DNA of 55,956 nucleotides from a virus (IMGVR_UViG_3300032303_001999:1-55956), one strand, 5' to 3'; positions 428-53,253 are shown, counted from the first letter of the stretch. Program-made: numbers and translations. The notes: generated by a model from the sequence alone, not told the origin.

Positions 428-438
428 ATGCGTCGCCT
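428..438 (+). promoter_or_regulatory. ATGCG(A/T)CGCAT-type motif copy (ATGCGTCGCCT)
   Basis: 61 bp upstream of ATG 489; same spacing as five other copies. Confidence 0.7.
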
Positions 439-488
439 ATACGCAGAAACCTTTTGGCTTACTTAAGGGAATGGCCACATTTCGACCT

Positions 489-845
489 ATGGCATTTACA
501 AAAGCACCTTCGGGCTGGCTGGGGTCGGGTTACACCGTCTCGGGCAGCGGAACTACAGCCGCAATCAATTTTGGGATCAGCGGGAATACTGCGGTAGGAG
601 AAGCTTTTCCACAGATTACATCTGCCGAAGCAAACGCATCAACTGGCGACATCCGCATGGTTTACTACGGAATAGTGGAACAGCTTTACCAATCCTACTT
701 AGGTAAAGCCGACGCTGACAAACCTAACAGGATGACGTTGGGCAAGTCTTCTAGCGTCAACTCTACGACTGGGCTTATTACAACCAACTACAGCATTCAG
801 TTTGTTCTGCAGGCTACTGGGCTGGATGTAACTGCTGAAGCTTAA
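489..845 (+). CDS. Hypothetical, probably virion-associated protein
   Basis: G/S/T/A-rich ORF MAFTKAPSGWLGSGY...; start chosen at ATG 489 (alternative 471) from motif spacing. Confidence 0.6.
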   Translation: MAFTKAPSGWLGSGYTVSGSGTTAAINFGISGNTAVGEAFPQITSAEANASTGDIRMVYYGIVEQLYQSYLGKADADKPNRMTLGKSSSVNSTTGLITTNYSIQFVLQATGLDVTAEA

Positions 846-895
846 TTTTTCACCTTACGCTTGACCTCGCTTTTCGTGAGGGTACAAGAAATGGT

Positions 896-1351
896 GTGAA
901 GCTATATCAGATCGAGGGGATGCTCTCTTTAGAGCAGATGAAGAGGGAGCATCCCTTCACTATTTCTGGAATACTTACCGAGGACGAGAGCCTTGTGGCA
1001 TTGGTCGGGCCAAATGCTGAGAGCCAGACTTGGACGGCCATGATTTCGATTAAGAGGAATACAGATACGTGGTCAACTAGAGCCTTTCTTTGGTGTCACC
1101 TAGAGCCAATGGAGATTCTTTACCAAAAATGGGGAGTAGACGCCCTGCCTCCGTTTCAATGGGGCAAAATGAAACAAGCTCCAGGACATGGGTTAGAATG
1201 GCAGATCGAGGAGCAGGGGAAAGAGATGAGCGAAGCCTTGGACAAGACCCTTGGGAGTATTACTAAATGCAGACAAGGCACACGCTTGGCTTTGGCTCAC
1301 CTTAAAGCAGAGGCCGTCAGACTCGACGCCAGCCTTGTCGGGCTTAACTAA
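896..1351 (+). CDS. Hypothetical protein
   Basis: 151-aa ORF; TTGACC-N16-TACAAG (861-888) ends 7 nt before the GTG, a possible leaderless sigma70 promoter. Confidence 0.6.
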   Translation: MKLYQIEGMLSLEQMKREHPFTISGILTEDESLVALVGPNAESQTWTAMISIKRNTDTWSTRAFLWCHLEPMEILYQKWGVDALPPFQWGKMKQAPGHGLEWQIEEQGKEMSEALDKTLGSITKCRQGTRLALAHLKAEAVRLDASLVGLN

Positions 1352-1500
1352 TCATTTTTGATATAATCCCAGAGTATTTTTGCTATCAAACAAGATAGCG
1401 GAACTCGTTTTTTTGTTGCGTGTTTTTTTAGCGCCTCCTTAAGAAAGCTAGTCGCCCAGAATCCTATAAACTTTCGAGTAGGGTGACGCTTGTTCGGCAT
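1348..1500 (-). CDS. Ribbon-helix-helix (Arc/CopG-like) DNA-binding protein
   Basis: Not in ORF track. MPNKRHPTRKFIGFWATSFLKEALKKHATKKRVPLSCLIAKILWDYIKND has a beta strand FIGFW plus two helices and is divergent from the early operon. Confidence 0.65.
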   Translation of the reverse strand: MPNKRHPTRKFIGFWATSFLKEALKKHATKKRVPLSCLIAKILWDYIKND

Positions 1501-1511
1501 ACCTAGGCGTA

Positions 1512-1575
1512 GGTGCATACAACTTGCATGCCAACATTAAATCATGGTGTTCAACACCTTGCGGTGTTTTCCACC
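1512..1575. promoter_or_regulatory. Putative operator repeats GGTG-N5-CACC
   Basis: Perfect copies at 1546-1558 and 1563-1575, degenerate copy at 1512-1524, in the divergent intergenic region. Confidence 0.45.
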
Positions 1576-1624
1576 TGTTTTTAGATTTGCTGAATTAGCT
1601 GACTCTTGGCTTTATTCATGAGTT

Positions 1625-2254
1625 GTGAAGATTATCTTTACACATCCACATCCAGCTATAGGCCCAGAGGGGGTACGGGGGTGGTGTTTAAGCCCTATTA
1701 GTCATGGTTTTATGGCGATAGCGCACGGATCAGTACCCGATTGCATGAAGAAATTAAGGTATTGTCCCTCTCGGAGCGTAGTGGATTCTCCTTGGGGAGC
1801 ATTGCCAGTCGGGTTCAAGGCTGGGGCTGATTGCATCCTCACGGAGGTAGATGGACGTTGGTACGCCAAGTCGGAGAGGGGAACAAACACCTATCCGCTC
1901 TTCCACGAGGCACAGGTAGAATCGGAGTTCCAGCCAGTCCTGTCTTGTTGGCGAGGCTCTAGGAAGGGTTGTGTGGACTGCTCCAGAGCCTGTCCAGAGA
2001 TCGACCCCGCAGTCAAAGCTAGGCGTGAAGCCCTAATGTCGCCAGCTGTCGTGGCCTCCCAGAGGGCAAAAAAAAGAGTCGAAAGATTTTTGTTGTCATA
2101 CGAGCCCCATTTAGCAATATCTTCGGAATGTCTCTCCGAGAAAGTCTCCAATCTGATGAAAGTTTTGGGAGCAAAAGGTGGGAGAGTTAAGAGTGAAAAG
2201 AAGCGTCTCGCCGCAAAACAAAACGCACTCAAACGATGGAGTGCGAAGCGATAG
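1625..2254 (+). CDS. Hypothetical protein with basic C-terminal LGxKGG...AAxxNxxKRW motif
   Basis: 209-aa ORF; CxxCxxxC cluster; C-terminal motif recalled from small phage proteins. Confidence 0.6.
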   Translation: MKIIFTHPHPAIGPEGVRGWCLSPISHGFMAIAHGSVPDCMKKLRYCPSRSVVDSPWGALPVGFKAGADCILTEVDGRWYAKSERGTNTYPLFHEAQVESEFQPVLSCWRGSRKGCVDCSRACPEIDPAVKARREALMSPAVVASQRAKKRVERFLLSYEPHLAISSECLSEKVSNLMKVLGAKGGRVKSEKKRLAAKQNALKRWSAKR

Positions 2255-7025: not shown

Positions 7026-7417
7026 CCACCAGAGAAAAGGTTAACGAGCTATCCCGCAAGAAGACGGAGTGGCTTGAGAACGAACTCAATTCTCCAGAGA
7101 TGCAAAGATCTATTCTTTCCGTTCTCAAGGAGGGCTTAAGTGCCGTGAAGTTCCAATGGGACGGCAAAAAGCAACAGGCAGACGAGGTCGTTGATTTCCC
7201 CACTAGGCTTAAATCTTGCGAGCTTGCTCTTGCCTACGCAATTGGGCGGCCGCTGGAGCGCCAGCAAATTATGGTTGCCCACCAGCAGATCAAGGATCCA
7301 TCAGAGCTGGTGAAAGGATCGCCAGCACTCAAAGAAGCCCTTCGAGAACTTCTCGATGAGAAGGACGAAATCCAAACCATAAAAGCACAAAACGCAAAAG
7401 AGGTCACAAAACAATGA
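7013..7417 (+). CDS. Hypothetical protein (possibly terminase small subunit-like)
   Basis: RLKSCELALAYAIGRPLERQQI segment resembles TerS-like C-termini; location away from TerL weakens this. Confidence 0.4.
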   Translation: MPSITTREKVNELSRKKTEWLENELNSPEMQRSILSVLKEGLSAVKFQWDGKKQQADEVVDFPTRLKSCELALAYAIGRPLERQQIMVAHQQIKDPSELVKGSPALKEALRELLDEKDEIQTIKAQNAKEVTKQ

Positions 7418-7728
7418 TAAGCCAACAGGATCTAACCACAGGAATGGTTGCGGCACTGGGGTTGCGAGTAAAAAAGGTGGAGGAACGAGTCGATATCCTT
7501 GAGGGGAAGCGCCTTGTCAAACCCACCGAAACCGATGACGACCAGCTTGAAAAGGAATGCCAGAATGTCGGCGTTTCGATGGACATCGTCCTTCGCCATG
7601 ACCGATACGGCGCTGGAGCTGATGCCCGATACCAAGTCGCTCGTAATTTAAGCAAGCTGGGATGGGACACACGAAGGATTTCTAGGGTTCTTCGTCGTTC
7701 AGTTCGGTCAATCCAGAGGATGATATGA
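7414..7728 (+). CDS. HTH DNA-binding protein
   Basis: GWDTRRISRVLRRSVRSIQRM C-terminal HTH. Confidence 0.6.
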   Translation: MISQQDLTTGMVAALGLRVKKVEERVDILEGKRLVKPTETDDDQLEKECQNVGVSMDIVLRHDRYGAGADARYQVARNLSKLGWDTRRISRVLRRSVRSIQRMI

Positions 7729-9628: not shown

Positions 9629-10680
9629 AGGTTTATATCTGGGGATACTTGCACCAATGCGGCGGAGCTGGCCCCGAAACAGGCCACGCCATCGAGCTGT
9701 TCCGAGATAACGGAGTCGAGGTCACTTGCGTTGTTCCACAGGGAACAGATGTGCTTTCGACATCTGAGCCTAGGAGGAGGTACTTGGACTCCCTTGGGGT
9801 CGCTACAGAAGCCTATTCACCTGGCATGTTTAACGATCAGAATATCTGGTGTTGGTGCGAAGATAGCCTCTTTGAGTACTTGATAAGGCACGAGGAAACG
9901 CCTCGGCAAATAGTTTACTGGCCGTGCATGAATAATTTTAGGGACAGGGAGCTTATCGCCATTGCTAAGATCAAGAACTTGCGGATATTATGTCAAACCG
10001 AATATCAGCTTGGCCAGCTCACGCAACGCATTAACGATGTGGGGATTTCGGCGGATATGCGTCACGTTTACCCCTTCTTTAATTTGAACAGCAAATGGGG
10101 TAAATTCCGATTCAGCGACAAGCCTTTGGACAGGCTAAACGTGATAAGAATTGGCCGCGACAACGAGCCGTTTAAGTACCCAAGGGATATGTGGGACTTG
10201 TTTTACAAGGTGACAACCCCAAGCGGAGTAACATCAAAGCTGTTCGTAATCGGATGGGGCGAGGAGGGCGAAAAGCTTTTGGGGAACATAGGGGATCCAA
10301 TCAATTCATATTTTGGGAAGATCAATGCCGAGGTTATTCCGCATATTTATAGCCCCAGCGAGCTGGCGAACCACTTTAGGGATGCTCACGCACATCTTAT
10401 GTTTTACCCATTCCACGAGAATGCGCCACGAGCAATGTTTGAGGCTATGGCTTGCGGGTCGGTTGTTGTGGGTCCTACTCACGGCGGAATTCCAGAGTTT
10501 ATCAGAGACCAAGAGACTGGCTTTCTGGTTTCGAGCAACGACGAGGCTTCACACAGGCTTTCACAGCTTGCCTTTAGCCCAAATAAAGCAAGGCGGATGG
10601 CTGAGAACGCATACGACAACCTAAAAAAGGGTATTGGATGCCCCAAGTGTGCATACGAAAGGTTTTCTGAACACCTATGA
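9625..10680 (+). CDS. GT-B fold (family 4-like) glycosyltransferase
   Basis: N-terminal CGGAGPE; ENAPRAMFEAMACG..VVG...GGIPEFI..TGFL signature. Confidence 0.85.
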   Translation: MKVYIWGYLHQCGGAGPETGHAIELFRDNGVEVTCVVPQGTDVLSTSEPRRRYLDSLGVATEAYSPGMFNDQNIWCWCEDSLFEYLIRHEETPRQIVYWPCMNNFRDRELIAIAKIKNLRILCQTEYQLGQLTQRINDVGISADMRHVYPFFNLNSKWGKFRFSDKPLDRLNVIRIGRDNEPFKYPRDMWDLFYKVTTPSGVTSKLFVIGWGEEGEKLLGNIGDPINSYFGKINAEVIPHIYSPSELANHFRDAHAHLMFYPFHENAPRAMFEAMACGSVVVGPTHGGIPEFIRDQETGFLVSSNDEASHRLSQLAFSPNKARRMAENAYDNLKKGIGCPKCAYERFSEHL

Positions 10681-15675: not shown

Positions 15676-16545
15676 CTAGAACCCCACAGGAGTCATTATC
15701 TTGTTCATCGCACCGCTGATAGGCTCGTGGTACGACTTCAAGAAGGCCAAGGACTCCGACGCCTTCTTTACGACAAGGTTTTTGTCTAGTTCTGGTTTAA
15801 GTAGGGAAGTTGTCGCAAGCTCCCCAGCGATTAGGGGAACTAGGAAAGCCTCGATGTCAGAGCTTGGGGTGTAGATCACAATAGGAATCTGTAGATCTGT
15901 GAGAACTAACTGCTGTGGCTCTAATGAGGCCGAGAAACGAATCGAGGAAGCCTTCGTAGGCAAGGGGATGACTCGAACTAAAGCCCTAGCCCCACCGCCA
16001 ATAGTGTCTCCGAGGTACTCGGCGGTATAATACGCTGGAAGCCCACTCTGCCTGTAGTAAGTGAGGGTGTCTTGACGTACTGGGGCTTCGGAAAGAAAGG
16101 TTAGGCGATGGTCTTCGTCCCAGATTACAGATCCCTCGATGCGACGGATTGGCGCCCACAGGGGGATCGCATCATCATAAAGCATGCCAGTATATGTCCC
16201 AGTAGCCAAAGACCACGGATCGCGAAGGGTAGATCCAATGCCAAGTGGACACTTGCGATCACCAACCTCAAGGGTATCCCCAATCCTGTCAGTATTAGAT
16301 GACAAGGTCAGGCCTGTCACATTCCTAGATCCTTGAGTTAGGCCAACCCTTACGCTTGCAGGGGCAAGCTGGAACGATGTGACAGGGGTTGTCTTACGTC
16401 CAGAAGGAGCTGAAAAATAGTATTTTGCAAACCCAGCATTGATCGCACCAATCAACGTAGCGGCTAGATCGGCTGGTATAGAGATTGGATCGCTCGGAAG
16501 ATTAGTGAATGAAATGACCCTTTGGGCGAGCTGTAATGATGTCAT
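15676..16545 (-). CDS. Putative head-tail adaptor/tail tubular protein
   Basis: N-terminal MT..QL..R helix, GLPAYY and RVIPLP motifs; position after capsid. Confidence 0.55.
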   Translation of the reverse strand: MTSLQLAQRVISFTNLPSDPISIPADLAATLIGAINAGFAKYYFSAPSGRKTTPVTSFQLAPASVRVGLTQGSRNVTGLTLSSNTDRIGDTLEVGDRKCPLGIGSTLRDPWSLATGTYTGMLYDDAIPLWAPIRRIEGSVIWDEDHRLTFLSEAPVRQDTLTYYRQSGLPAYYTAEYLGDTIGGGARALVRVIPLPTKASSIRFSASLEPQQLVLTDLQIPIVIYTPSSDIEAFLVPLIAGELATTSLLKPELDKNLVVKKASESLAFLKSYHEPISGAMNKIMTPVGF

Positions 16546-17219
16546 TTGGCCTCCTCCAGGGTTTTTAATGCCCTGTCATACTCGGCCTTTAGCAAAGGCT
16601 CTCTCTGTTTGCTTTTATCGGCAAAGAACAACGAACTGCTGGATAGATAGCGTGCAATAGGCAACAGCAGGGTCTCTGCGTAGTTGTGGGGCATCGGGAT
16701 AATTGTGGAGGCCGAATAGTCGCTAGTTGTAAAAGCAGGGGCTTTAATTGAAACCTCCACGGAAAGAGCCGTGCTTGTGGTGGGAGAAGGCACAACAAAC
16801 ATCGTGATCTTGGTGGAATCGGCGGCGTCTGGGGATGGCCGTTTCTCGTCGGCAAAATAAGCTTGAGGCGGTGCGCCAGTAAGGGCTGTCAGAGATCCAG
16901 CATAAATTGAGGCAAACGAATCGTACTCGCCCCTTGTGCGGATTGGACGAAGGCCTACGCCGTCAGAAACACGTTTTACAGGGCCGAGAACCGCTTCAAC
17001 CGAGTCATCGAGAGTGACGTTATTTGAGTTGGCTGAAATCGTCGCAGTAATCGTCTGGCGTGTGTAGTAATCCAAGAGCCGATGCCCCTTGGCCCAAATG
17101 AGTTGTAACGCCGAATTAAGGTCGTTGAATATCCGCCTCCGCATGATTTCGGGGGCAGATGCGTTATTAGGGATGCCGAACACTTCATAAATTGCATCTA
17201 TGGCTTGAGTGACGTTCAT
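16542..17219 (-). CDS. Putative head-tail adaptor (T7 gp11/P22 gp4-like)
   Basis: LN.ALQ.IW, GAPPQAY, VPSP, IPMP..YAETLL pattern. Confidence 0.65.
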   Translation of the reverse strand: MNVTQAIDAIYEVFGIPNNASAPEIMRRRIFNDLNSALQLIWAKGHRLLDYYTRQTITATISANSNNVTLDDSVEAVLGPVKRVSDGVGLRPIRTRGEYDSFASIYAGSLTALTGAPPQAYFADEKRPSPDAADSTKITMFVVPSPTTSTALSVEVSIKAPAFTTSDYSASTIIPMPHNYAETLLLPIARYLSSSSLFFADKSKQREPLLKAEYDRALKTLEEAK

Positions 17220-17506
17220 ACAGCCACCGCCTTGCGAGGCCTCCTAGGTTTTTCAACAGGGGCAGGGGTTTCATCAATAACAGGCTCATCTTTAAGAATC
17301 TTAACTGATGGCCTATAGAAAGCATCTTTCGTAGCGAAAATATCATCCACCGATGAGGAATCCTCTTGGCTAATAACGCCTCGATTCCAGACATGGGCAT
17401 TAAATTCGTTGTTCCAGATAAAAGTATAGTACCGACCAGAGCCACCAGAGAGTCTGATGGCTGGGTTGTAGCGTGAAGAACCAGTAATTGTGATGACGAG
17501 CTTCAT
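17216..17506 (-). CDS. Hypothetical head-associated protein
   Basis: 96-aa ORF directly after capsid gene; basic tail. Confidence 0.6.
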   Translation of the reverse strand: MKLVITITGSSRYNPAIRLSGGSGRYYTFIWNNEFNAHVWNRGVISQEDSSSVDDIFATKDAFYRPSVKILKDEPVIDETPAPVEKPRRPRKAVAV

Positions 17507-17546: not shown

Positions 17547-17558
17547 TCTCCAATAGAC

Positions 17559-19154: not shown

Positions 19155-19194
19155 TTTAATATCCTCCTATTCTTTTGGGTTTGTAAGCCTCGCC

Positions 19195-23450: not shown

Positions 23451-23452
23451 TA

Positions 23453-42800: not shown

Positions 42801-44208
42801 CGAGGACGTTGATGGCCCTGTTGGATGCGTCAATTTCATCCTGTGGCGCTCCAGATTTGATAAGTTCATTGTGCTGGGCAATTGCCAGATCCGTTTTCTT
42901 TCGCAACAGAGTCCATACAGCCCTCGCGTTAATTGCGGGCTTTTTTATCTCGTCGGTATATTCGGAGAGTTTCTGCTTGCGATTTTCTAGGTTTGCATCG
43001 ACTGATTTCTTGGCTTGTTCCGCCTCTTTCCGTACTCCCTTTGCTTCTTCGGATTCTGGTAGGCCGATCATCATTCCGTTAACTGCGGAAGGGATCATGC
43101 CCTCAAGAGCTTTGGGAAGGGCAGGGGCTTCTGGGTCGAGATTGCCTAAATTGAGGGACGATGCTGATTCTTGTAGTGCTTTATATATCGGATCATCCTT
43201 GGGGTCGCTTGACTTGGAGCCGTCAGCTTTGACAATGCCTTGCTTGCGAACGTCTTGACCTCTTTGCATGAGGGCATTGAAGGTTGCTTCTTTTTTCTTT
43301 TGGTTTCCAAGTTCCGCTTGGAGCATTTTGTGTTTCGCGAGTTGCGATTCTTTTTCATTTAGCTCCTTTGTGCGGGCCATTTCTTCGTCTGCTATTTTCT
43401 TGGCGTATTCCGCTCTTTGGTCGTCTGTTGCGTCCGCGGATATTGGAGGCGGGTTGTTTTTGGCTGTTTCTATTTGGCTCTTAAGATCTCCAATCCCAGC
43501 CCGCAGCTCGTCTTCGGTTGCCTTTAGACCCTTGAATGCCTCGCCGTAAATCTGGTCGTCTCTATTCGTCCTTGCGGGTCTGGCAACATTCCGAATGGCC
43601 TCGTCGTCAGAATTAACAAGCTCATCAATGCTCCCGATCCTCTTGGATTTGCGGGTTGCGTCACGCTCTGGAGTCGCACCCTCGACTTGGGGTTTGCCCA
43701 TGGGGACTCGATAGATTGCATTTGGATCTTCCCCGTAGTCTTTATTCCCTGTCTTAATTTGGACTGGAACTTCTGGCTTGTTGATTGGGTTACCAAATTC
43801 GTCAAACTTTGTTGTACCGCCCAGCTCGTTTGGGGTTTCCCCAGATCCCCACTCCAGAGTTGCCATTCCCTTGTTGTCGGACGTGACTTTTGGCTCAACG
43901 CCTCCGCCAGCTACTTGCCGATGTTTTACTCCAGCGGTATCTAGGGTGCGTTCGGTCTGGGCATTGGAGCGATCCTCCGAGGCCTTCGCTTCTTGTTTTG
44001 CAATCTGGTTAAGTTTGTTGGCGTCGCTTCTTGAAATGTAAGTCGGGGTAGGGGCGGGTTTGGGGTTTTGCGCTTCCAGCGCATCTTCTCGTTTCTTGCG
44101 AACACGAGCCAATAATTTGTCTGCTTCGTCTGGTTCGGGGCCAGCAAAAGCAGTTCCTTGGATGCGGTTAGGGCGTACCGAGGGATTCAGCTCGCTGGGC
44201 AATCCCAT
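27880..44208 (-). CDS. Giant polyvalent/ejection-type protein: hydrophobic N-region, ddrB-ParB-like domain, strawberry-notch SF2 helicase, GYF_2, sigma-70-like module, HExxH peptidase, coiled coil, helical C-terminus
   Basis: 5442-aa ORF; GAPIL...IVSGHGR; GHEMGVGKGR, FILDESH, SSAT, QMLGRTNR; TIHEYKH...HEFVTE. Confidence 0.85.
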   Translation of the reverse strand: MGLPSELNPSVRPNRIQGTAFAGPEPDEADKLLARVRKKREDALEAQNPKPAPTPTYISRSDANKLNQIAKQEAKASEDRSNAQTERTLDTAGVKHRQVAGGGVEPKVTSDNKGMATLEWGSGETPNELGGTTKFDEFGNPINKPEVPVQIKTGNKDYGEDPNAIYRVPMGKPQVEGATPERDATRKSKRIGSIDELVNSDDEAIRNVARPARTNRDDQIYGEAFKGLKATEDELRAGIGDLKSQIETAKNNPPPISADATDDQRAEYAKKIADEEMARTKELNEKESQLAKHKMLQAELGNQKKKEATFNALMQRGQDVRKQGIVKADGSKSSDPKDDPIYKALQESASSLNLGNLDPEAPALPKALEGMIPSAVNGMMIGLPESEEAKGVRKEAEQAKKSVDANLENRKQKLSEYTDEIKKPAINARAVWTLLRKKTDLAIAQHNELIKSGAPQDEIDASNRAINVLEADLKQKLPSVIMGNQSLESAQQLEKDTIDSAKQEAKTQKESIDAQASQMAGATNQRVFLGNPKESPKPPILPEDPKEAVNKLPEAVKNKDIPISVAVKASKAIQENPQAKTALNNEIKAVQQKAANYSEAVRQSTKDEWDDSYKDLKNIYRGGEVALRQTIPIVKGMVALGGATAEKFFGQGGVSTDVKNWGYNGYKEGMAGAEALHQDNDEVTTAWAKAKDGDVGAMVDWMTYGLGYLGGQLTETVAMSIIGGIAGSAAEPGLGTLAGVGTGAVAKGMVREAAGKLVGKMIAKEIEETSVKTGVKISSEQAIKQIAKGAGSTALIGANAFTQELGTIYPTLVDEKKKSGEEITGTDLARVWATGIVAGGMESLSDKLGLEVLFHGQFPLIPQKFKNIAKDSKAIAGLLGFGWTGALEGGTEFGQTWLERLGAGQTLNDKSAWQDYINSGALGFLGGATIGGYSGFIHGIEGNEEAGHEQVINELKKGSADVPMGGWEAWANSLGATGQSEVVLNARPIAESEPEAKGLKPAERLIAAGKELDARLSAGLDANKQAYYWAVRADIANSLQTLAVSQNQAREQIQSLSDTPASKSDVSPRQAAIAAAFVITGGKPTIESEKYKLNGVPIFQHTTDGNTILEPAFAEKFAKDVPAISRYQEVKADIERLEFAVDSFEPSASGMAGADLWRRNRGEVEQEEEPLLNTPQKLMERAGNRLSGGTSVDRIASAKAKTEELSKSLSVDGVKLSYEEGEIGGTSMNATIGDDGSISLKVDPSYFKLQDSQDPELNNRAFHEELLHVGDFSVSIKEAKAKGLRPEEYGAYHVERRNKQFNDILEVAEGNEQVLKALISSISLYDPNTDFDSSPAGAQEIRTYLGGDKVKTMQVMSEMLRQLGQIENKSGLTENRVELRTAAQGRYASGERAVGTKVKDLIAQIKQYIMAVYKSLSRMRKALSSANPKVGAELDDVLNRIQEALKGNKQAWSDFGVPSPSVTGERSGGLVQPNLPSTGANPRPTTAPAQEAQTQPEPVTEQVEPPAPPTPPEPPAPPAPPVPPAPPAPKAKENTIKAFTQGFTGSTIVGNPKIIEATEAKDMEGTDIQPRNRKDRDAYKTQIETMARNWDPDKAMPGTSTGDGAPILTDKNEIVSGHGRIKAMIEMFRRYPERAAAYRAKLMEKFPEMAEQIRSMKMPIVVTEMDLMASFEESNKTATGLGVNKTPEQFLRRLAVRANTGTLATEELAVSDAREIQDNPELRDIKQNENGDLSESPESVAIQQKFFEIFGSPQQYRNNDESFTKAFKDRVTSALLADAIASSNNGVISDSEKIIISAITDPENGNSGIKTLAAALTKSVTRLVSLRQIATEVLGAEKAEKLDPLVPIAKSLQAYLEAKRAGGVNTPKDWQSFVENNRSQIPGLAENILDQTAADVFQPIYDFRDSSAKLSSYLNNLASELEAKIQDRKDMGETDIFGQPIPLVDDYAGTISSAAQKAVEKTLAKTRPSSSLSSRGLPAPDPREEQIDKDQEKAELQESWTPVGEEESKKIDGYYSLGLSSPANLAPEQRFAFDELVKEVGPIPQYVSKTLGIPLDKIFKRDDGEERLSAEALETIALTINQIDKGKSVIIGHEMGVGKGRPVGALIFTYALPKGLIPVFVTKSEPLYVAMMDDIEDVGFEGQIKPLITNNNWSSMRSKGRPVTMKNPIQKLRLIAQSGKLPSEHNAIFTTYAQISSSAKKDVIPALNAIADRAIFILDESHTAAGTDSSIGEFFRSVIPRSRGAVFSSATAIKSPANIATYFPKTSIPMAVPTASEFERLAKRFGNPFMQMTSSMLARAGQMFRLQSGFTWKGQKIPFIPTPIKAKQEVIDAHNAANEILGEMRQIEIGEKMKKLTEQLVVDAQEEYEGTTAKALIYPLSGQFHNVAANMVLGAKIKDTADLAEAEIKAGRKAFISLDTTGETFLRDAREIMEGGSLQSYDKTAKVTFKDFMERYARKLNTNKVKIEPADEKSNAPALEFTIDWNKTNGKSRIPSWVSQKSIELHDSLMETGFKDLALIIKDNAETLNKLPISPFDALRAELQRRQILSGEISGRDIVVTPSGEFAQRSMTDQDKQNALLGFRNSENLRALVVGRPASTGMSAQDDPRNKVAAPRTHIVMQPAADITDTLQMLGRTNRNSQQSLPKLIYIYSEDIPAEARIMAMTQKKMRRLGASTTGKDATAAGENLGLDMLNTYGDNAVARVLANEPELRTAYNTRAGTNFPEKYDDIRRILTSGEPGDGMRRMIHKALILDIEDQRHFFEEITAEYVAMVDFAKQNGTYELESQEKDYKAEKLSDEKAWDAYGVASSDKTLPQKNADKLYFYANPEGGEVLGPVTLRELNAGLVLGTPRFSSKISKDTLVYKASENTTSFGSEILLKAQNELEDGSGNWTQLEDVLRDNPSVPESKSGEDAFSKPARIAKYRFNNPIPPPTSAELIPTLEKAKQQAETAVSDFLKASDSVLKDKLARISSNPRMEQLAKVRALENTRKKSAEVRANVERALDLVGKGAWFGKDTKQIPSYVVGVELNNRFPHAESRQYLVLQTSGFENKVRIPLQASELAHVNPFKVSLDKSPIGENEAPTRDPSVPIANLPTGIYRNTDGSGLVVFMRGSRRVDVDTLPPEQLREVNAVAYEMAVQMHESGMEESEIENRVFNEAINKVLTTGDNALDPDSWNRYVEEKMPESRKGDGFGKTYDRSRQNATQRDQFVVEGNLLTGANFVSSMFGANVPAAVTTFTTKDGGKTTGVVMPAGVNSDNLVNLKSEVAKGQGSLLGPVGKVMDNIMDEEGKPRPVVFSDGSMISGHNLYIPDKAFLDDKNEGYRKEALDNSNAIATMIVAKINQGHDAWMYRGPKNGFSLRSRGLKREAGQGRAKEQVVEGFLTDDNAKDFAPEGVIGRNIRYKAMKASDDGWLQAGNLGEDEIHENLYDYAIALQAQINQRHGQNTKGELIENVPNFILSAVDNRIKQMQEEAKNRETISKDAPISGTFNEEGDVEQEEASVGDYMALKEAPESNKELYDKLEKVMASLADSDRKIFMMYVSGASYQQISETPEAYKSRNVGNLDGEVAPDRTWVFKHIQSLKGQLSKYANFLGIDAPTAKEDQEPTEASPMEGFKAIEETKGQMTLFSRGLVSYLDKNAGNSVLFRDLLTAVANEPDALPSQRALAKLLTTPNTKQSMMTAGLYVPAEINPDPTFVRSYYKPSKEGNGMVVLSLNGIKNSGEPIETTIHEYKHVLTHNLLVKEGIGTATGKKELDRLVEYANRPDIEMDAEGNPLPLASGSKGGYKPLKALIKAYLAAVNVSKDTAGNPVADAVFGTGLASTYDVTLHMAPYEEPIGQDGIHMKAEITSENTFPLLKYLKDQGLEGTRPMGRNSGMSLVASKGSPDFVFLNQTDEEALGGMETNGVQNTTLVLTPSGIEKLRQQNLEPLFYASYKVRATAPMFRTKVTDIQTDPQKVRSIYYGLGNIHEFVTEMYSDSRFQTEMASIPGQAGIEINGNLKEYMQALAAELPQEARNAMMQNSAIKPTILTQGQSAALELSSQPFDFMKMVENLRQGNVEKKLEQATLFSRGIKIQDKDRNNIDVLKTKLLQLHKKKHGSYQKEDDGYYRPVPPQSLSPQEEALYTMLMNKAREEKWPGIAFQSDLMQVDESVKPPAPAEDLVLEQESAVPKPKMEQLSLFSRGLMEVSSALSGESPMAKAVEALPKGGLYGKQRENAFTDFMQNAMLPESFEAKYQGKGLSPVKLRAEYLKQNPEVLKRLLYKESGKNPSTKLYSRGLPPMPEEEPINNGAQQAPLNDLLASFLGASGSVITDEEIDATYQRASEENAPYEVGAPYVGQDVRSAGPFANDQFRDVQRVARELRRPTDTVETDASVEAAARALVATHKAQLYEDLLEGTLETSATNQAAVYLALAEDAKTAKTPEQLREIAILTMANDIQRTNLARAFRIGRDSQMTPEERNRSFFNAELYRRSPDSNELYKNAISRTLKKRTIAGHNEQIAILQAELDKAKSQAGEAFNANEQWQKWGAYMEGRIKEFQDANQLWADQLDKYQVLEQESARKIEALQAELAKANTSLEQMDWETAQLKIRESKSAQDVLDTIKMSKDDAEAIRLVMAGMVPMAAAKQAGIKPARVMQLMKSLETNTKQRFDQVAGELATQGITRSQLKAKLTAFANGASLRSRGIEANQEEAPLTKEEILAEIVSAMGFDYAGQSDTSGKADWHNVDGKSSLFDWRKPSNIGVAMQMVRRSQGKQASIGDAVFEAHVALLVSSTSTQLANVSKTPLTFLNPFYRMVEAGMSYIMGKAGLNVRLPDGTIGNPYASLSDVVNGATDEAKLGFMAMLPSVINGTRYARLAFNTEKPYYNIDHTDATMLDEGDQKFYENDPKIPGPLGKKVRLPLRALLAADEFAKSFAAETLVGSIAFRMAKAKGLKGQEIVDYVRNQVSEFGSDSWKIAVERSSRETLNEDVADNKDEPFTFKRLGKAAPRALNKLSRSISDLSKNLESWGFDPNNGARAVTAPVAFTGSMGLQVLRGLTLFARISYNVLARGLAFTPIGLADSAIGAMNSIKKNREGQRFMDLSNYENSVAGLTEGAIGTAILMALFRSMEGDKDDDKKFLLITGPAAQADSAGRTTRYGHRSYMIRIGDKEFDISRIEPFASTMGFGVALGTAVKDAVHRGGGIAVSQNLVGDFSRILAQKTFGGQLRTAKTLFVDWNVVDPVIDFASVFTAPPAARGLIEASRDYVSRTKSEEPSLLNKDRMLSKFAPLVGAYPNATGYRTPYAYDYEGKKVVKPFTEVVPNSTAGKVAKFALRNLSPVAVYKKKPASKLNRFVESYNRQQISTDGKTWILNSPRAEITDPYSKKKVRLTLREQETLNSIVQPQLQALFEVNITEADIANPTDAKKKKIQDLASKLRNKYEEQIVRQRYAMSDAKQTK
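27894..27904 (-). promoter_or_regulatory. Motif copy GAGCGACGCAA inside 3' end of giant gene
   Basis: 59 bp upstream of portal ATG 27845. Confidence 0.6.
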
Positions 44209-45452: not shown

Positions 45453-45501
45453 CTACAACAACTGGCCAAGGGAAGTTAGCCCTCAACTGATTTTATGCTT
45501 G

Positions 45502-45512
45502 ATGCGACGCAT
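45502..45512. promoter_or_regulatory. Perfect palindrome ATGCGACGCAT at terminase stop
   Basis: 60 bp upstream of ATG 45452. Confidence 0.8.
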
Positions 45513-47260
45513 TAGGAGTAGCTGGCAACAGGGGTTCTAGCCATATAGATTGGCTGAAGATCCTTCGGCAAAGTTCTTACCGCCGCTGGCGTGTTAAATC
45601 TAGTAGCCCCCGCAATAGTGGTAATTCCAATAGCTATTGCCAGAACATCGTCATCGTGCCTCCCAGCGGCCGCCTCGGATCTACCGCTTTCGGTAATAAC
45701 GAAGGTTTTTAGTTCCTCGATGGCGTGACGACAATATATGTCAATTCCAGACCCTTTTTCATCGTGGTCTCTAATAGCTGACGCAAGTTCCTCAATGACA
45801 ATACGTCTGGTCTTGTCTGTGGTCTGCCATCCCAAGGCTTTGCTACGCCTAGATTCTCGTAAATTGAAGATTTCACGCTGATAAAGGTTAACGCTGGACT
45901 CTTTAAGTAACTCAATAAGAGCCAGTCCTGGGCCGTTGACCTCTGGGACTACCAAACACCCTCCATAATGCAGGGAAAGTCTCTCTATAAACTCGGCCAA
46001 TACGTCAATATCGACTCGGCATGGAGGTCTTACCCTTGCCACGAGGGCAGGGCGGATCCACGAGCCGTCAGCATCAAAGTATCCAGCCCTTAAAACGACT
46101 ACAGAGTGGGAATCTGGGTCAGATCCAGAGACTTGGGAGTTTCCTGTCATGCAATCTGCTGAAATTAGGTATCTGCCGTTCTCTTTGGGGTTTTCCCATA
46201 TCCACGCCCAACTTTCGGCCATAGAACAGCTCCTAAATATGGGTTTTGTGAAGTTAGTAGGGACGTCGATTGTCCCATAAATTGGATCTTTTATGGTTTT
46301 TTCAAGGGCGGAGATTCCAGATAGGTCAAAACGAGGCCGTCCAGACGCCAAAAAGCAACTGATCGGGTCAGAAGGGTACTCTTGCTCAAATTGCTTAACA
46401 TCTCCACCGCACTTCTCCTTGATAACTCGGCGTCTCCACGCCAATTGATTGTCTGTCAGCAAAAATTCGTCCCTTAAAGATTGCTCCTTAAAGGACAGAT
46501 CAAGAGGCTCCGTATCTATTTCTTGGTTTTCCTCGAAGTTATGCCAAGCGGCGAAGATTCGGATGTATCCGTTTCCTGTTTTACCGCTTTTGTACTCGTC
46601 AAATGTGACCGCACTCTGCCATGTGTTGTAAAAAGCACCGCCAGCTCCGTTTGGGGTGGATTCCTCGATGACGATTGTGTTAGGTGAGGTGGGTACGCAG
46701 TTACGAATAGCCAACAGGATCTTCTCCCCAGACCGCTCCCCAGCTCGACGATAGTGGGCAACCTCGGAGCAGAGAAGGGCTTGGAGTGTCATGGATCGCC
46801 CTGCACCAGGATCGTTGGCGGTTTCCTTGGCTATTCGGCTTCCGTTGGATAATTCGCCTCGTGACACGCTGAATGTTTGCCCCCAGTCGAGGTTGTCGTT
46901 TTCTACATACCGATTGACCATATTCAAAAGGTTCTGGGAAGTATCCAGCTCGTCACCCAGAACACAGGCCGTGGCGTTTTCGGTGCTACGAATGAAATGG
47001 GTTATAACGGCAGCCGTTATAGTGCTTGAACCCATCTGCCGAGGCTTCAAAACAACAAGCCGAATGGGCTTTTGATTCTTTTTTAGCCAGCGGATGACTT
47101 GGGCAACGTGCTTCTGAAGATAGTTAGCCCTTGGGCTTACCAGTTTTGCGTCCTTAGTAAGGATTTTTGTGTAGGTCTCCCACCACGCAAGGAAATCGGC
47201 TTTTGCAACCGCCTCGATGGTTTCGAGAGTTACTTGCGCTTTTTCTTGTTCTTCGGCCAT
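45512..47260 (-). CDS. terL: Terminase large subunit
   Basis: VLKPRQMGSST Walker A, LLCSE Walker B, ESTPNG, FEQEYP, ISAD and HDDDV nuclease motifs; likely start MAEEQEK. Confidence 0.92.
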   Translation of the reverse strand: MAEEQEKAQVTLETIEAVAKADFLAWWETYTKILTKDAKLVSPRANYLQKHVAQVIRWLKKNQKPIRLVVLKPRQMGSSTITAAVITHFIRSTENATACVLGDELDTSQNLLNMVNRYVENDNLDWGQTFSVSRGELSNGSRIAKETANDPGAGRSMTLQALLCSEVAHYRRAGERSGEKILLAIRNCVPTSPNTIVIEESTPNGAGGAFYNTWQSAVTFDEYKSGKTGNGYIRIFAAWHNFEENQEIDTEPLDLSFKEQSLRDEFLLTDNQLAWRRRVIKEKCGGDVKQFEQEYPSDPISCFLASGRPRFDLSGISALEKTIKDPIYGTIDVPTNFTKPIFRSCSMAESWAWIWENPKENGRYLISADCMTGNSQVSGSDPDSHSVVVLRAGYFDADGSWIRPALVARVRPPCRVDIDVLAEFIERLSLHYGGCLVVPEVNGPGLALIELLKESSVNLYQREIFNLRESRRSKALGWQTTDKTRRIVIEELASAIRDHDEKGSGIDIYCRHAIEELKTFVITESGRSEAAAGRHDDDVLAIAIGITTIAGATRFNTPAAVRTLPKDLQPIYMARTPVASYS

Positions 47261-47370
47261 GACCAGTAGATTTCGGTGCCATGCCCAGACCCAAGGGTGG
47301 CGGTCTTCCACTCACCGAATTTGTTGGCTTTGCGTTTTTCTGAAAGGCTTTTGAGCTTATTCTTTTTCAT
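47230..47370 (-). CDS. Small Lys-rich hypothetical protein (46 aa)
   Basis: Own translation MKKNKLKSLSEKRKANKFGEWKTATLGSGHGTEIYWSWPKNKKKRK; fills gap. Confidence 0.45.
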   Translation of the reverse strand: MKKNKLKSLSEKRKANKFGEWKTATLGSGHGTEIYWSWPKNKKKRK

Positions 47371-49756: not shown

Positions 49757-51193
49757 TTATCCTAGGGCGATAGCAAATGCGATTAGGGTTGCTTGAAGGC
49801 TGGTTACTTCTGATATCGAGTGAGAATGAGAAGTTGGAGTTCTGCTATTTGAAAGCCTGGAATCATCTCCAGCACAGAAACTATTCGAAGTAGTTCCAAA
49901 TGTTCCTGTCGTTACAACGCCAGAGGTTGTCGTGATTAGCGGAAGATTGGCGGTTGAGCCTATTTTACCATCAGAGGTAAGATTGCCGTGAGTGTGAGAA
50001 GTAAGGGCAATCGTTCCAGTTGCATTTGGAAGGGTGATTGTCTTGTTGCTTCCGCTTGCAGAGCCTTTGAGCGTTGTTCTGGTTCCAGTAAAACCAAGTT
50101 GTATTGAGCCAGTTGCACGAGTGTCGATTGCTCCTCCACCATTTGAGGTATTGATGTATCCACCTACAGTTTGTGCCCCCAAACTAATTCTCACAATACG
50201 ACTCCCGACACCCTCTGGTTGTGACCAATAATCTCCTATTGGAATATCATTCCTTCCAATTTGAGAATTGCTCAAGTAGGCCAACACGGATTCTTCGCCT
50301 AAGATTCCCCATCCAGTGTAGTTAGGAGCAATCTGCGTAGTAAGCCCTAGAGGTCCAACTCCGTTAGTGAAATACATTAGTATTGGGTATATCCCTCCAC
50401 CCATATCAATCGTGCCAGCATACGAAAGCTCTGTTCCTATATACTGTGGTTCGTAAGAAGAATTGTAGTACCCGCTAGAACTATTGCTTCCGACTAACCC
50501 CCACCCGCCATGCGTAAAGATTGACCCGCCATTATACGAGGTGACGATAGATCCGCCTCGATACCCGCCAGCAACTCCAGACATAACCAAGCTCCCACCT
50601 CTGTCATTAAACGTAATATTATCGGATCCGATAAAAATAGATTTTCCAGAACCTTCTTCTACGGTTAATCCAGTTGGCTCGATGTAGGCATTTGCATAGT
50701 TCGCAGCCGCTCCGCCAGCCACTCCGAATCCCCATGCGCGTATTTCTGAACTAGTCCCGCCCGAAGCGGAACCTCCTACGGTTAATCCAGTTGGCTCGAT
50801 GTAGGCTTCTGCATAGTTCGCAGATACTCCGAATCCCCATGCGCCTATTTCTGAGTTGCCGTCACCACCTGACTGATTAAATGTTACAGCCTTATCTGTG
50901 TTTGGGCTAACTGCATTTGAGTGAATTAACTCGGCTGTATTTGCAATTCCGTGAACTGATGTAGTTGCGGAGTTATGGGTTGTTATTTTGCCATCAACCT
51001 CTACGGCGGCTTGATCAGGAAGATTGGCTGTTGGGACTTTTGAATTTGCGTCCAGCGGAGCGTATCCGTTCGCAACACCCTTATTAGCCTTGTCTTCCTT
51101 AAGCGTAAGGTTGATTATACCGCCGCCGTTTGTGTACGGAGTTGGTAGCGTCTCGTCCGTTGTTCCGCCTGTATATGGAAGTTGTATTGCCAC
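49757..51193 (-). CDS. Tail fibre-like protein with internal duplication
   Basis: KGVANGYAPLDAN.KVP, HTHGN, DDSRLSNSRTPTSHSH fibre motifs. Confidence 0.75.
   Translation of the reverse strand: MAIQLPYTGGTTDETLPTPYTNGGGIINLTLKEDKANKGVANGYAPLDANSKVPTANLPDQAAVEVDGKITTHNSATTSVHGIANTAELIHSNAVSPNTDKAVTFNQSGGDGNSEIGAWGFGVSANYAEAYIEPTGLTVGGSASGGTSSEIRAWGFGVAGGAAANYANAYIEPTGLTVEEGSGKSIFIGSDNITFNDRGGSLVMSGVAGGYRGGSIVTSYNGGSIFTHGGWGLVGSNSSSGYYNSSYEPQYIGTELSYAGTIDMGGGIYPILMYFTNGVGPLGLTTQIAPNYTGWGILGEESVLAYLSNSQIGRNDIPIGDYWSQPEGVGSRIVRISLGAQTVGGYINTSNGGGAIDTRATGSIQLGFTGTRTTLKGSASGSNKTITLPNATGTIALTSHTHGNLTSDGKIGSTANLPLITTTSGVVTTGTFGTTSNSFCAGDDSRLSNSRTPTSHSHSISEVTSLQATLIAFAIALG
50659..50854. repeat. Near-identical direct repeat (about 80-90 nt x2) within fibre gene
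   Basis: 50659-50749 vs 50776-50854, differing by a 12-nt indel and few substitutions. Confidence 0.9.
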
Positions 51194-51242: not shown

Positions 51243-51253
51243 ATGCGTCGTTA
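51243..51253 (-). promoter_or_regulatory. Motif copy (plus strand ATGCGTCGTTA)
   Basis: 60 bp upstream of GTG 51193. Confidence 0.65.
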
Positions 51254-51678: not shown

Positions 51679-51680
51679 AT

Positions 51681-52049
51681 TTAACCCAAGGTAAGGAGAT
51701 ACTTGAGCTGGTTGGCTGTCCCCAGCATTTCATCACGCAAGTTGAGTAAATCGGTATCTTTGGGCGAGAGCAGGGTAGGGAGGATTTCTACCAGGAACTT
51801 GATGAATCCGTTTATGTAGACCAAGAACTGGCCAGAGTAATCATCGAGCTGTATGTCGGCGCCGCCTGTAGGCCGTGAGTACTTTCCAATATAGACCTCG
51901 ATGAATTCGTCAATTGTCTCAGTCAATTCCTCGTAGGCTTTACCAAAGGCTTGGTGCTGGGCATAGGACTTGGTCTGCCAATGAAACAGCTTGATCTGGT
52001 TTTGGAATCCAAGAAATGAGCTTACGATGGCTTTGCCAGAGTTCTTCAT
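51681..52049 (-). CDS. Ferritin/Dps-like (DUF5856-like) protein
   Basis: KLFHWQTKSYAQHQAFG..YE....D.F.E...LRDEM...YLL. Confidence 0.8.
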   Translation of the reverse strand: MKNSGKAIVSSFLGFQNQIKLFHWQTKSYAQHQAFGKAYEELTETIDEFIEVYIGKYSRPTGGADIQLDDYSGQFLVYINGFIKFLVEILPTLLSPKDTDLLNLRDEMLGTANQLKYLLTLG

Positions 52050-52171
52050 TTTTTCTTTTTGGGAATGCAGTTAGGAACTGATTTCCCTTTTATCTCCTTA
52101 GTCCCAGCCATCTCGTAGTTTCTCCAGCATGGATCACTCTTTTTGGGGAGTGGCCCCGCATAGCTCTTCAT
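52046..52171 (-). CDS. YAGP-tag micropeptide with CW.NY..G.K...GK.VPNC motif (41 aa)
   Basis: Own translation MKSYAGPLPKKSDPCWRNYEMAGTKEIKGKSVPNCIPKKKK. Confidence 0.7.
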   Translation of the reverse strand: MKSYAGPLPKKSDPCWRNYEMAGTKEIKGKSVPNCIPKKKK

Positions 52172-52401
52172 TACTCGGAATAGGATTTACGGATGTCAAT
52201 CTTAGGAGCTTTGTCGGCGTATTTTGCACGTGCCATCTTAGTGTTTGGAACAAAGTCTTTAATTTTTTTGTATTTCGTTTTATTCCAGTTGGGATCGTTA
52301 ATGGAATTATCCGCCCCCATTCCAACGGCGTTATTCTGGTTCTCGGCGTCGGTGGCCATGTAGTTTGGGCCAGAGTATTTCGATGAAGGATAGTCTCCCA
52401 T
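52171..52401 (-). CDS. YSGP-tag small protein (76 aa)
   Basis: MGDYPSSKYSGPNY...KIDIRKSYSE; TAATG coupling to next gene. Confidence 0.65.
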   Translation of the reverse strand: MGDYPSSKYSGPNYMATDAENQNNAVGMGADNSINDPNWNKTKYKKIKDFVPNTKMARAKYADKAPKIDIRKSYSE

Positions 52402-52404
52402 AAA

Positions 52405-52563
52405 TTACTCTTGGTAGGATTTCTTTACGTCAATCTTGCGGGCCTTGCGGACTGGCTTTTTAGTCTCCAAGTCTGCCTCTCTTTTGGCTTCTTGGCTGTT
52501 TGGTGCCTCATCTTCTGGCCCCTCATCTGGGCTGGGGCCAACGTACTTCTTCATGTCTCTCAT
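52405..52563 (-). CDS. YVGP-tag micropeptide (52 aa)
   Basis: Own translation MRDMKKYVGPSPDEGPEDEAPNSQEAKREADLETKKPVRKARKIDVKKSYQE. Confidence 0.65.
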   Translation of the reverse strand: MRDMKKYVGPSPDEGPEDEAPNSQEAKREADLETKKPVRKARKIDVKKSYQE

Positions 52564-52613
52564 TCGGCGAGAATGGGAACGGCGACATTATTCCAAAAGC
52601 AGTATTAGGGTTG

Positions 52614-52624
52614 CGGCGACGCAT
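52614..52624. promoter_or_regulatory. Motif copy CGGCGACGCAT centred between divergent genes
   Basis: 61 bp to minus ATG 52563 and 61 bp to plus ATG 52675. Confidence 0.75.
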
Positions 52625-52674
52625 CGCTCCGCGGGGTGTGGTATCGCTTTTTATTTCAGATATTTGTCTTTGAA

Positions 52675-53253
52675 ATGGCCGACACAAAAGAGGCTTGGGA
52701 CAGATTGAAGACCGAGGGGTTCTTCACGCCACACCTGCGAGTCAAGCAAGCTGGCAACAAGGGGCTGGGTGTTTTTGCAGAAATTGATGTTGAGAAGGGG
52801 AAGCCGATTGAGTTTTGTCATTCTATTGTGATGGAGCATCGCAACCGCTACCAGCATGACCCAGAGTTTCGTCGCTATTCGTACTGGGCTAGTTGCGAGT
52901 GTGAAGAATGCAAAAGACACGGATCTCAGGCCGTCCTACCTTTGGGTAATGGTTGTATTTACAATTGCGCTGACTCAAAAGATTTGGCTAATTGCGCCTA
53001 CCAAGTGATTGCAAAAGAGAGGTTGGTTGTGTTTTTTGCCATTAAAGACATTAAAGCAGGGGAAGAAATTCTGACTTGGTGGGGGCAGGGGTATTACAAC
53101 CAATACTGCAAGGCTAGTTCTGCCCCCGATACGAAGGTGGCTGATGGTACAGCGTTGGCCACTTCTGATTCTTATCCAGCATCTCGTACTGAATCTTCGG
53201 ATCCACTCCCTGTCGAAATTTCGGTAGAATCACAAGCCGAGACCAGCCAGTAA
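52675..53253 (+). CDS. SET-domain protein (lysine methyltransferase-like)
   Basis: KGLGVFA..D...G..IE, LGNGCIYNC...NC, FFAIKDIKAGEEI motifs. Confidence 0.85.
   Translation: MADTKEAWDRLKTEGFFTPHLRVKQAGNKGLGVFAEIDVEKGKPIEFCHSIVMEHRNRYQHDPEFRRYSYWASCECEECKRHGSQAVLPLGNGCIYNCADSKDLANCAYQVIAKERLVVFFAIKDIKAGEEILTWWGQGYYNQYCKASSAPDTKVADGTALATSDSYPASRTESSDPLPVEISVESQAETSQ

Follow-up and report, generated by a model that had tools for sequence, protein, structure and literature searches.

What switches on the late genes of an uncultured freshwater phage, and what part is played by the short GC-rich words that stand ahead of its operons? The question is raised by IMGVR_UViG_3300032303_001999, an entire virus record of IMG/VR (55,956 bp, estimated completeness 87%; hereafter the window, meaning the whole stretch of DNA analyzed). 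Six GC-rich boxes in the window lie at a fixed distance from eight start codons. On the strength of sequence comparison, these boxes are probably the upstream elements of eight late promoters, which would drive all structural modules, be read by an activator, and yield mRNAs that are leaderless or nearly so. The six boxes, each with its 7-nucleotide (nt) core, are the following (aa, amino acids; ORF, open reading frame):

428-438, plus strand: box a, ATGCGTCGCCT, core 430-436, before gene 489
20210-20220, both strands: box b, exact palindrome ATGCGACGCAT, core 20212-20218, between a divergent gene pair
27894-27904, minus strand: box f, GAGCGACGCAA in gene direction, core 27896-27902, before the portal gene (ATG 27845)
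45502-45512, minus strand: box c, exact palindrome, core 45504-45510, before the 413-aa gene (ATG 45452)
51243-51253, minus strand: box e, TAACGACGCAT in gene direction, core GCGTCGT 51245-51251, before the tail gene (GTG 51193)
52614-52624, both strands: box d/SET, CGGCGACGCAT, core 52616-52622, between the small ORF (ATG 52563, minus strand) and the SET gene (ATG 52675, plus strand)

The most constant feature of these boxes is their position. A first-pass annotation had given site-to-start distances of 59-61 bp, which proved correct on recount; measured from the centre of the core, the distance to the start codon is 54-56 nt at all eight named starts. Positional enrichment was assessed against a deliberately liberal null, which accepted any ATG or GTG 57-60 nt downstream, provided that it opens an ORF of 50 aa or more, whatever the frame. 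Seven of the 14 strand-specific core occurrences in the window have this geometry, against a background of 0.030 (binomial P=6e-8), and the non-fitting cores, at 18304 and 44021, are both within genes. The same test gave 8 of 18 cores in G001, 7 of 16 in G002 and 8 of 14 in G003, three close relatives of the window, and swapped-motif controls gave 1/7 and 0/8. The enrichment expected from the first reading of the window is thus present, and the same spacing recurs in related genomes, including, with a different word, another clade. Two boxes had been described as centred between divergent genes, and comparative data agree; in the window, core centres are 55 and 54 nt from starts 20160 and 20269, and 56 nt from both 52563 and 52675. 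Four starts were chosen among alternatives (489 not 345, 20160 not 20172, 27845 not 27857, and 52675 not 52636), and the selected starts are those with conserved N-termini.

The sequence of the box is less constant than had been proposed. The palindrome ATGCG(A/T)CGCAT, said to occupy all six sites, is exact at 20210-20220 and 45502-45512, its only two occurrences in the window (0 of 100 shuffles had any), but the other four sites are degenerate, with one mismatch at 428 (ATGCGTCGCCT), two at 52614 (CGGCGACGCAT) and three each at 27894 (TTGCGTCGCTC) and 51243 (ATGCGTCGTTA). When two or fewer mismatches are allowed the palindrome is not enriched in the window (14 matches, 10.35 expected). What all six sites have in common is the 7-nt core GCGWCGC (variant GCGTCGT at 51245). 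Its count in the window, seven, is about that estimated from base composition alone. In relatives the outer A is replaced by G at sites b and c, so that the 11-nt palindrome as such is not what is conserved. As to orientation, the perfect ATGCG half is distal to the gene in a and c, and the better CGCAW half is proximal in e and f.

Conservation among close relatives was followed in G001-G003, whose DNA is 80-92% identical to the window in alignment. Each of these genomes, like the window itself, has exactly four copies of the directional 9-mer ATGCGTCGC, and the copies are invariably 60-61 nt ahead of one set of four ATGs: those of gene 489, the scaffold gene, the 413-aa gene behind the terminase, and the small ORF opposite SET. 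At units b-, b+ and c the footprints have a common layout, in which the box, the block from -45 to -27 and the block from -14 to -4 are conserved and the stretch from -25 to -15 is variable. The -35-like elements of four units are:

454-460, plus strand: TTGGCTT, unit a (-35 to -29 from ATG 489)
20189-20195, minus strand: CTTCCGT, unit b-, within the conserved -45 to -25 block
20234-20240, plus strand: ATTGCTG, unit b+
45481-45487, minus strand: GTTGAGG, unit c

Taken one by one, the boxes are conserved as follows. The exact 9-mer of box a is 61 nt before the ATG in G000-G003, within a block (-66 to -27) that is invariant across four genomes, and the remainder down to the ATG is variable; the gene behind it encodes a 118-aa, probably structural, protein. 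Box b is common to the scaffold-capsid-adaptor operon (ATG 20160, minus strand) and a tail-fibre-like operon (ATG 20269, plus strand). At this box TGCGACGCAT is kept in 13 of 13 distinct aligned sequences, including L008, L003 and L013, where the right flank differs and belongs to a different gene while the box and the scaffold side are retained. Box c overlaps the stop codon of the terminase gene, and would serve the 413-aa gene, the giant protein (presumably a 'polyvalent protein', as discussed below) and the portal; G004 and G006 have boxes of their own 59-60 nt before the homologue of the 413-aa gene. Box f sits inside the last codons of the giant ORF, at its 3' end, with its core centre 54 nt from the portal ATG; in relatives, the portal gene is preceded by the distant-clade box 60 nt before the ATG, or, in G006, by a core 62 nt before a GTG. 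Box e is retained in four distinct aligned sequences and is accompanied by TTGCTGG at -35 to -29; in a distant clade GCGGCACAGAGC is found 59 nt before the GTG of the tail gene homologue. TTGCTGGAT is shared by units b+ and e at the same offset, +25 to +33 from the start of the box. As for box d, the exact 9-mer is 60-61 nt before the small ORF in four genomes, and GCGACGCAT is invariant in five sequences. CTTTTGGCTTA was considered as a separate second motif and rejected, as it corresponds to the -35-like hexamer in unit a and to part of the -14 to -4 block in b-.

Both genes beside box d deserve a remark of their own. The SET-domain gene (52636-53253, plus strand), which stands behind a late-type box, is lysine methyltransferase-like and is retained in a distant clade at 44% identity; such a protein is unusual cargo for a phage late gene. 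The small ORF (52405-52563, minus strand) has 52 aa in the window and 87-103 aa in close relatives, and a small ORF behind a box in G006 (about 9925-10212, minus strand) likewise begins M..(K/N)KY(V/A)GP. It may encode a conserved lysine-rich late protein.

The most telling comparison is with more distant clades, which differ in what stands at these places. In the clade with about 55% capsid identity (G004, G005, L018, L020 and L033; clade 2), GCGWCGC is absent from them and is replaced by GCGGCACA[GC]AGC (GCGGCACAsAGC), 59-60 nt before the scaffold gene, the portal gene, the post-terminase gene and the tail gene, the last with a GTG start. All five GCGGCAC words of G004 are on the coding strand and have the box geometry (P=4e-8). 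As this clade has boxes before its portal and tail genes, the weakest sites of the window, 27894 and 51243, are supported by homology of position. The 63-65% clades keep GCGWCGC, with free flanks, 58-62 nt before the scaffold, portal, 414-aa and small-ORF starts; in G006, 4 of 10 cores have the box geometry (P=1.6e-4). No box was found in the 51% clade (clade 4), where 0 of 8 cores of G008 have the geometry. Its scaffold gene is preceded instead by TTGACA-16-CATACT, which matches the consensus at 10 of 12 positions and ends 8 nt before the ATG; judged by its sequence, it comes close to the sigma-70 consensus and would be expected to initiate at the start codon. Should a strong -35 make an activator dispensable, the lack of a box in such a clade is what one would predict. 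In a 40% relative, TTGACT lies at -36 from the scaffold ATG. G008 also has a different palindrome, ATCTTTTTAAGAT (L105 9263-9275), once in its genome; it lies just ahead of the consensus -35 in the scaffold promoter and could be the site of another regulator.

The region between box and gene was studied by anchoring 16 units from three clades on their start codons; homologous promoters are included and the units are not fully independent. The positions at which one base prevails are:

-40: A in 11/16 units
-34: T in 15/16 units
-33: T in 11/16 units
-32: G in 9/16 units
-11: A in 10/16 units
-9 to -5: T in 7-8/16 units each

Counted from the start codon, the second element thus falls where a -35 would and reads TTGnnn. 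An A at -11, whose frequency is only nominally significant, is what a -10 hexamer should have there if transcription begins at the A of the ATG. No match to the sigma-70 consensus (TTGACA, 16-18 nt, TATAAT, at least 9/12 matches) was found in 20100-20330, around site b, as expected of an activator-dependent promoter. The first-pass annotation had stated that none of the eight starts has an obvious Shine-Dalgarno (SD) sequence. An SD 4-mer is indeed missing at seven of them, compared with 26 of 49 other genes (23 of 49 have one), but 51193 has GGAG, which is not kept in relatives; genes inside operons, the capsid gene for example, have clear SD sites. Of the eight start codons only that at 51193 is GTG; the others are ATG. 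The suggestion that the transcripts are leaderless or have a fixed leader is compatible with this picture, that is, with TTG at -34 to -32, A at -11 and the lack of SD sequences.

Some RNA data are available for 16500-28500, as contigs from four metatranscriptome runs (four studies); contigs cannot show start sites, and RNA depth and uncovered stretches were given no weight as evidence. Contigs span the adaptor, capsid and scaffold genes, with ends at 20149, 20149, 20134 and 20125, that is, 11-35 nt inside the scaffold ORF (ATG 20160), and none of the contig pieces listed bridges box b (20210-20220). At the portal (ATG 27845) one contig ends at 27833. These ends are a weak hint of 5' ends near start codons, with the portal also expressed from read-through RNA.

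From these observations the following arrangement can be proposed. A phage protein made from an early or middle operon would bind the box and recruit the host RNA polymerase to an otherwise poor promoter of sigma-70 type. The parts of this promoter would be the box, centred 54-56 bp from the start codon, a TTGnnn at -34/-35, which the box precedes by about 20 bp, a short run of A near -40, and a weak -10 region made of A(-11) and T-rich sequence. Transcription would begin at the start codon or a few bases from it, and the first gene would be translated without an SD sequence. Eight promoters would result, for gene 489, for scaffold/capsid/adaptor, for the tail-fibre module, for the 413-aa, giant and portal genes, for the portal again, for the tail genes as far as the terminase, for the small ORF, and for SET, and the two boxes midway between divergent genes could each serve both. 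The distance is held over eight genes and several clades, even box-less ones, and would be explained most simply if box and start codon were both positioned by the transcription start, which would then be at or next to the start codon; and the use of both orientations, together with the symmetric sharing of boxes by divergent genes, fits a two-fold symmetric binder better than a -35 contact of a sigma factor. The late regulon proposed by the first-pass annotation, defined by a box at a fixed place, is supported by the comparative data, which put a box before the first gene of each structural operon.

Which protein could read the box? Among the ORFs of the window, searches against Pfam and PHROGs revealed no annotated transcription factor beyond weak helix-turn-helix (HTH) matches at 4883, 7414 and 10677, and a Pfam scan of ten ORFs of the G001 region that are missing from the window gave none either. 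The three HTH genes had all been put forward as candidate activators. Only 7414 follows the box from clade to clade; 4883 and 10677 were set aside as first choice, since each is missing from box-bearing G006 and found in box-less G008. The retained candidate is:

7414-7728, plus strand: candidate activator, 104 aa, with a long N-terminal helix and a C-terminal HTH

Seven genes of the window are found in the box-bearing genomes G001, G006 and G004 yet are absent from clade-4 G008, namely 896, 5441, RusA 5821, 7414, 7897, 47357 and the resolvase, and among these a predicted DNA-binding domain is carried by 7414-7728 and the resolvase. A profile search for the 7414 family was positive in clades 1, 2, 3 and 3b, and negative (E<=1) in two complete clade-4 genomes. 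The last helix of the protein reads RRS[VC]RSIQRM in every clade with GCGWCGC, despite about 42% overall identity, and KRHTRNIQKRW in the clade with GCGGCAC. In its long N-terminal helix, residues 9-28 weakly match designed coiled coils, and the model has a C-terminal four-helix HTH (pLDDT about 88), for which the top Foldseek matches are DnaA DNA-binding domains in complex with DnaA boxes (3pvp, 1j1v; rmsd 1.8-2.2 over 60-65 columns). A homodimer prediction scored 0.02, compared with a mark of 0.42, and counts neither way. A scan of viral contigs with the 7414 alignment gave 16 loci and no new clade, and a search for homologous proteins gave four close clusters. The 7414-7728 product, a putative coiled coil joined to an HTH, is the best candidate for the activator, at somewhat less than an even chance because the co-variation rests on one change and one loss. 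The resolvase was rejected as the binder of the box: its HTH is similar between G000 and G004 although their boxes differ, and differs in G006 although that genome shares the box of G000.

Several observations weigh against activated, leaderless promoters or against the candidate protein. The A at -11 (10/16) has an estimated p of about 0.002 for that position alone and fails correction over all positions, and no clear TAnnnT consensus emerges for a -10 element over the 16 units. The SD contrast is not significant alone (Fisher p=0.12). GTG starts are used in 3 of the 16 units (unit e of the window, unit e of G004 and unit f of G006), and GUG is poor for leaderless translation in Escherichia coli. 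In G006 a good GGAGG lies between the TTG and the GTG of the portal gene, 8 nt ahead of the latter, which implies for that gene either a leader or translation from read-through RNA; and in the window, contigs of three of the four runs extend out of the giant gene over the portal box. T at -34 is missing from the SET unit alone, and a 2-nt deletion in G001 alters the spacing of this unit. The clade-2 box, GCGGCACAsAGC, is asymmetric and has one orientation in 5/5 cases, which suits a sigma-like or monomeric reader equally. As to the 7414 protein, six other genes share its presence/absence pattern, and its co-variation with the box comprises one change and one loss. The DnaA fold match has a probability of 0.99 yet an E value of 0.3-1.9 (best 0.34), which is not significant, and Pfam gives only a sub-threshold HTH_23 match, in 6/6 members of the family, and no Bac_DnaA_C.

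Part of this would be explained if the boxes were read by an alternative sigma factor or another RNA polymerase specificity subunit, of phage or host origin. The box would then be a -35 element and TTGnnn a -10 element, and transcription would start about 37 nt after the start of the box and leave an SD-less leader of about 22 nt. From box to TTG the distance is about 23 nt, start to start, which is the usual -35/-10 spacing, and nothing TATAAT-like is conserved downstream. Conservation of unit a stops at about +33, with variable sequence from there to the ATG; the SD of the G006 portal lies between TTG and GTG; and the asymmetry and single orientation of the clade-2 box fit this reader as well. 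We nevertheless consider this explanation unlikely, if deserving of attention. It gives no reason for a 58-62 spacing frozen over eight genes and three clades, leaves unexplained the TTGAC[AT] at -35/-36 from the scaffold ATG in clade 4 and in the 40% relative, and sits badly with clade-1 boxes that occur in both orientations relative to genes. The ends of RNA contigs with a word depth of 400-900x are a weak point on the same side, as they fall 11 nt within the scaffold ORF and not ahead of it. Nor is a suitable protein apparent. The sigma-like module named by the first-pass annotation as another possible activator dissolved into a sub-threshold match to Sigma70_r4_2 (33550-33645; 20.3 bits against a cut-off of 25.7) within the giant ORF; Sigma70 region 2 was found in 0/3 genomes (G000, G001 and G004) at E<=10, and no RNA polymerase domain was found in the scanned parts of the 5,442-aa giant protein.

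The boxes might also take part in some other DNA transaction, as repressor operators, as sites of the serine recombinase (53304-53942), or as iterons of a replication protein with a DnaA-like domain. A palindrome at a fixed promoter position could equally be an operator, the resolvase shares the presence/absence pattern of the box and carries an HTH, and the nearest fold of the candidate is the DNA-binding domain of a replication initiator. Such roles are improbable, however: the resolvase HTH does not track the box, and sites of recombination or replication need neither a 54-56 nt spacing to eight starts nor replacement in place. Moreover, the box lies upstream of the -35-like element and leaves the core promoter free, an unusual place for a repressor to bind, and a box-less clade with a consensus -35 is the pattern of an activator no longer needed. 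That a short GC-rich word should merely happen to fall near some start codons, through chance or composition, would agree with the ordinary count of the core 7-mer, with the lack of enrichment of the pattern with up to two mismatches, and with the picking of some start codons among alternatives. It is scarcely credible given the positional P value under a liberal null, the repetition of the geometry in three relatives and, with a different word, in another clade, the negative swapped-word controls, and the conserved N-termini behind the picked starts. Activated late promoters, leaderless or nearly so, are thus the reading that we prefer. A bolder version of it, which we put forward tentatively and do not regard as probable, is that of a freshwater phage lineage of about 64 kb in which every late operon would be leaderless, a new activator, a coiled coil with an HTH like DnaA domain IV, would bind the box and place RNA polymerase, box and recognition helix would have co-evolved as the pairs GCGWCGC/RRSxRSIQRM and GCGGCACAsAGC/KRHTRNIQKRW, and one clade would have escaped through consensus -35 and -10 elements together with loss of the gene.

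The arrangement would work like the late activators of the P2 Ogr and Mu C-Mor class, and is a member of neither family. The late promoter site of P2 is TGT-N12-ACA, Mor and C of Mu are small dimeric proteins with a C-terminal HTH, the DnaA box measures 9 bp, and cI of lambda is made from a leaderless mRNA when transcribed from PRM. In the account given in PMC3152322, P2 Ogr, a small phage protein, binds inverted repeats centred near -55 of the late promoters and brings in host RNA polymerase by contacting the alpha subunit, and Mu C binds from -30 to -55, upstream of or over the -35 of late promoters (PMC3152322). As with P2/P4 Ogr/Delta in that account, several late operons here each have a site, whose centre would be at about -55 if transcription starts at the start codon, and the short A-run around -40 offers a place where the alpha C-terminal domain could sit. 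Unlike in P2/P4, Ogr_Delta (PF04606) was found in 0/4 genomes (G000, G001, G004 and G006) at E<=10, the site is a compact GC-rich 7-11-mer instead of a spaced repeat, two sites are common to divergent promoters, and the distance is fixed to the start codon, suggesting leaderless mRNAs. The candidate 7414 resembles Mor and C as a small HTH protein that would be made early or in the middle period; in contrast to Mu, the Mor family (PF08765) was found in none of the same four genomes at E<=10, and the box lies further upstream, set apart from a recognizable TTG.

To DnaA domain IV there are two likenesses, the best structural match of the candidate's C-terminal domain and the DnaA-box size of ATGCGTCGC; but the match is weak, there is no AAA+ module, and the sites are at promoters and not at an origin. 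The consensus of sigma-54 promoters is TGGCAC-N5-TTGC, and the clade-2 box contains GGCAC, with TTGC often in the second element. A sigma-54 promoter was rejected nonetheless, since GG and GC are about 22 nt apart rather than 12 and the clade of the window is without GGCAC. Bacteroidetes-type promoters (TTTG / TAnnTTTG) were dropped in view of the many genes of the phage with a good SD site. PMC5312081 remarks in passing that leaderless transcripts are frequent in phages. The units described here recall leaderless mRNAs in that seven of the eight have no SD 4-mer and in that the start codon falls where a promoter-like arrangement would place +1; they differ from the known cases in that a whole late regulon is predicted to be concerned and one of the eight starts is GTG. 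A full-text literature search for the box words gave unrelated, primer-type matches only, and no description of this arrangement was found in the portions of the literature on leaderless late promoters that were covered, the name of the phage group not being among the search terms.

The genes around the boxes were identified by family search and are listed here with one further feature, a terminator-like hairpin:

16542-17219, minus strand: SU10-type adaptor
17517-17546, minus strand: terminator-like hairpin with T-rich tail, directly after the capsid gene, within the b- operon
17559-19154, minus strand: major capsid protein
25620-27857, minus strand: SU10-type portal
27880-44208, minus strand: 5,442-aa ORF with ddrB-ParB and Strawberry-notch-type helicase domains
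45512-47311, minus strand: large terminase
49757-51193, minus strand: tail protein
52636-53253, plus strand: SET-domain protein
53304-53942, minus strand: serine recombinase

In the product of the giant ORF, the ddrB-type ParB domain occupies residues 1552-1664 approximately, the helicase consists of AAA_34 and Helicase_C_4, and about 1,900 C-terminal residues have no family match. The position of this ORF between a late promoter and the portal makes it probable that the product, which we take to belong to the class of 'polyvalent proteins', is delivered with the virion. The hairpin at 17517-17546 is strong (13 pairs, 11 of them G-C), and RNA contigs of three runs pass through it as far as 17020; it may therefore attenuate transcription and not stop it.

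Some further observations concern the rest of the record. In the intergenic region before the early/middle operon (1352-1624), TGATATAAT was read directly as an extended -10 with a perfect TATAAT; a simple promoter scan did not call it, finding no fitting -35. This perfect TATAAT suggests that early genes, in contrast to the late units, are read by the host polymerase from ordinary sigma-70 signals. Over the operon that starts at 20269, the stretch 20001-24000 has a G+C content of 43%, against a window mean of 49%, and the 880-aa protein of this operon is 41% identical to its G001 copy, compared with 68-81% for its neighbours; the stretch looks like an exchanged tail-fibre or host-range cassette. 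Beside the serine recombinase, 54321-54710 is a gene-free stretch of 390 bp with long G runs (GGGGGAGGGGGG, AGGGGGGGGTGG and GGGGGTGGGTGGG) that does not align to G001.

With regard to host and distribution, relatives come from several studies of lakes and freshwater, metagenomic as well as metatranscriptomic. Searches of isolated phages (blastn, tblastn) gave no match to the window, a search of bacterial genome contigs gave no prophage match, and no tRNA genes were found in the window. A 75-kb record classed as provirus (G010, L109-L112), with 63% G+C, has capsid, portal and terminase proteins 37-42% identical to those of the window, and might point to the host phylum of the wider group.

This study provides a late regulon map, drawn from sequence only, for an uncultured and widespread group of freshwater phages, and proposes a partner for the DNA box, a candidate protein outside all described families. 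Should the leaderless reading be true, the group would be a natural case in which promoter-to-start-codon geometry is kept throughout a regulon, and its related genomes would show gain and loss of activator dependence. The box can also be used to annotate, in relatives, the first genes of operons and their true start codons.

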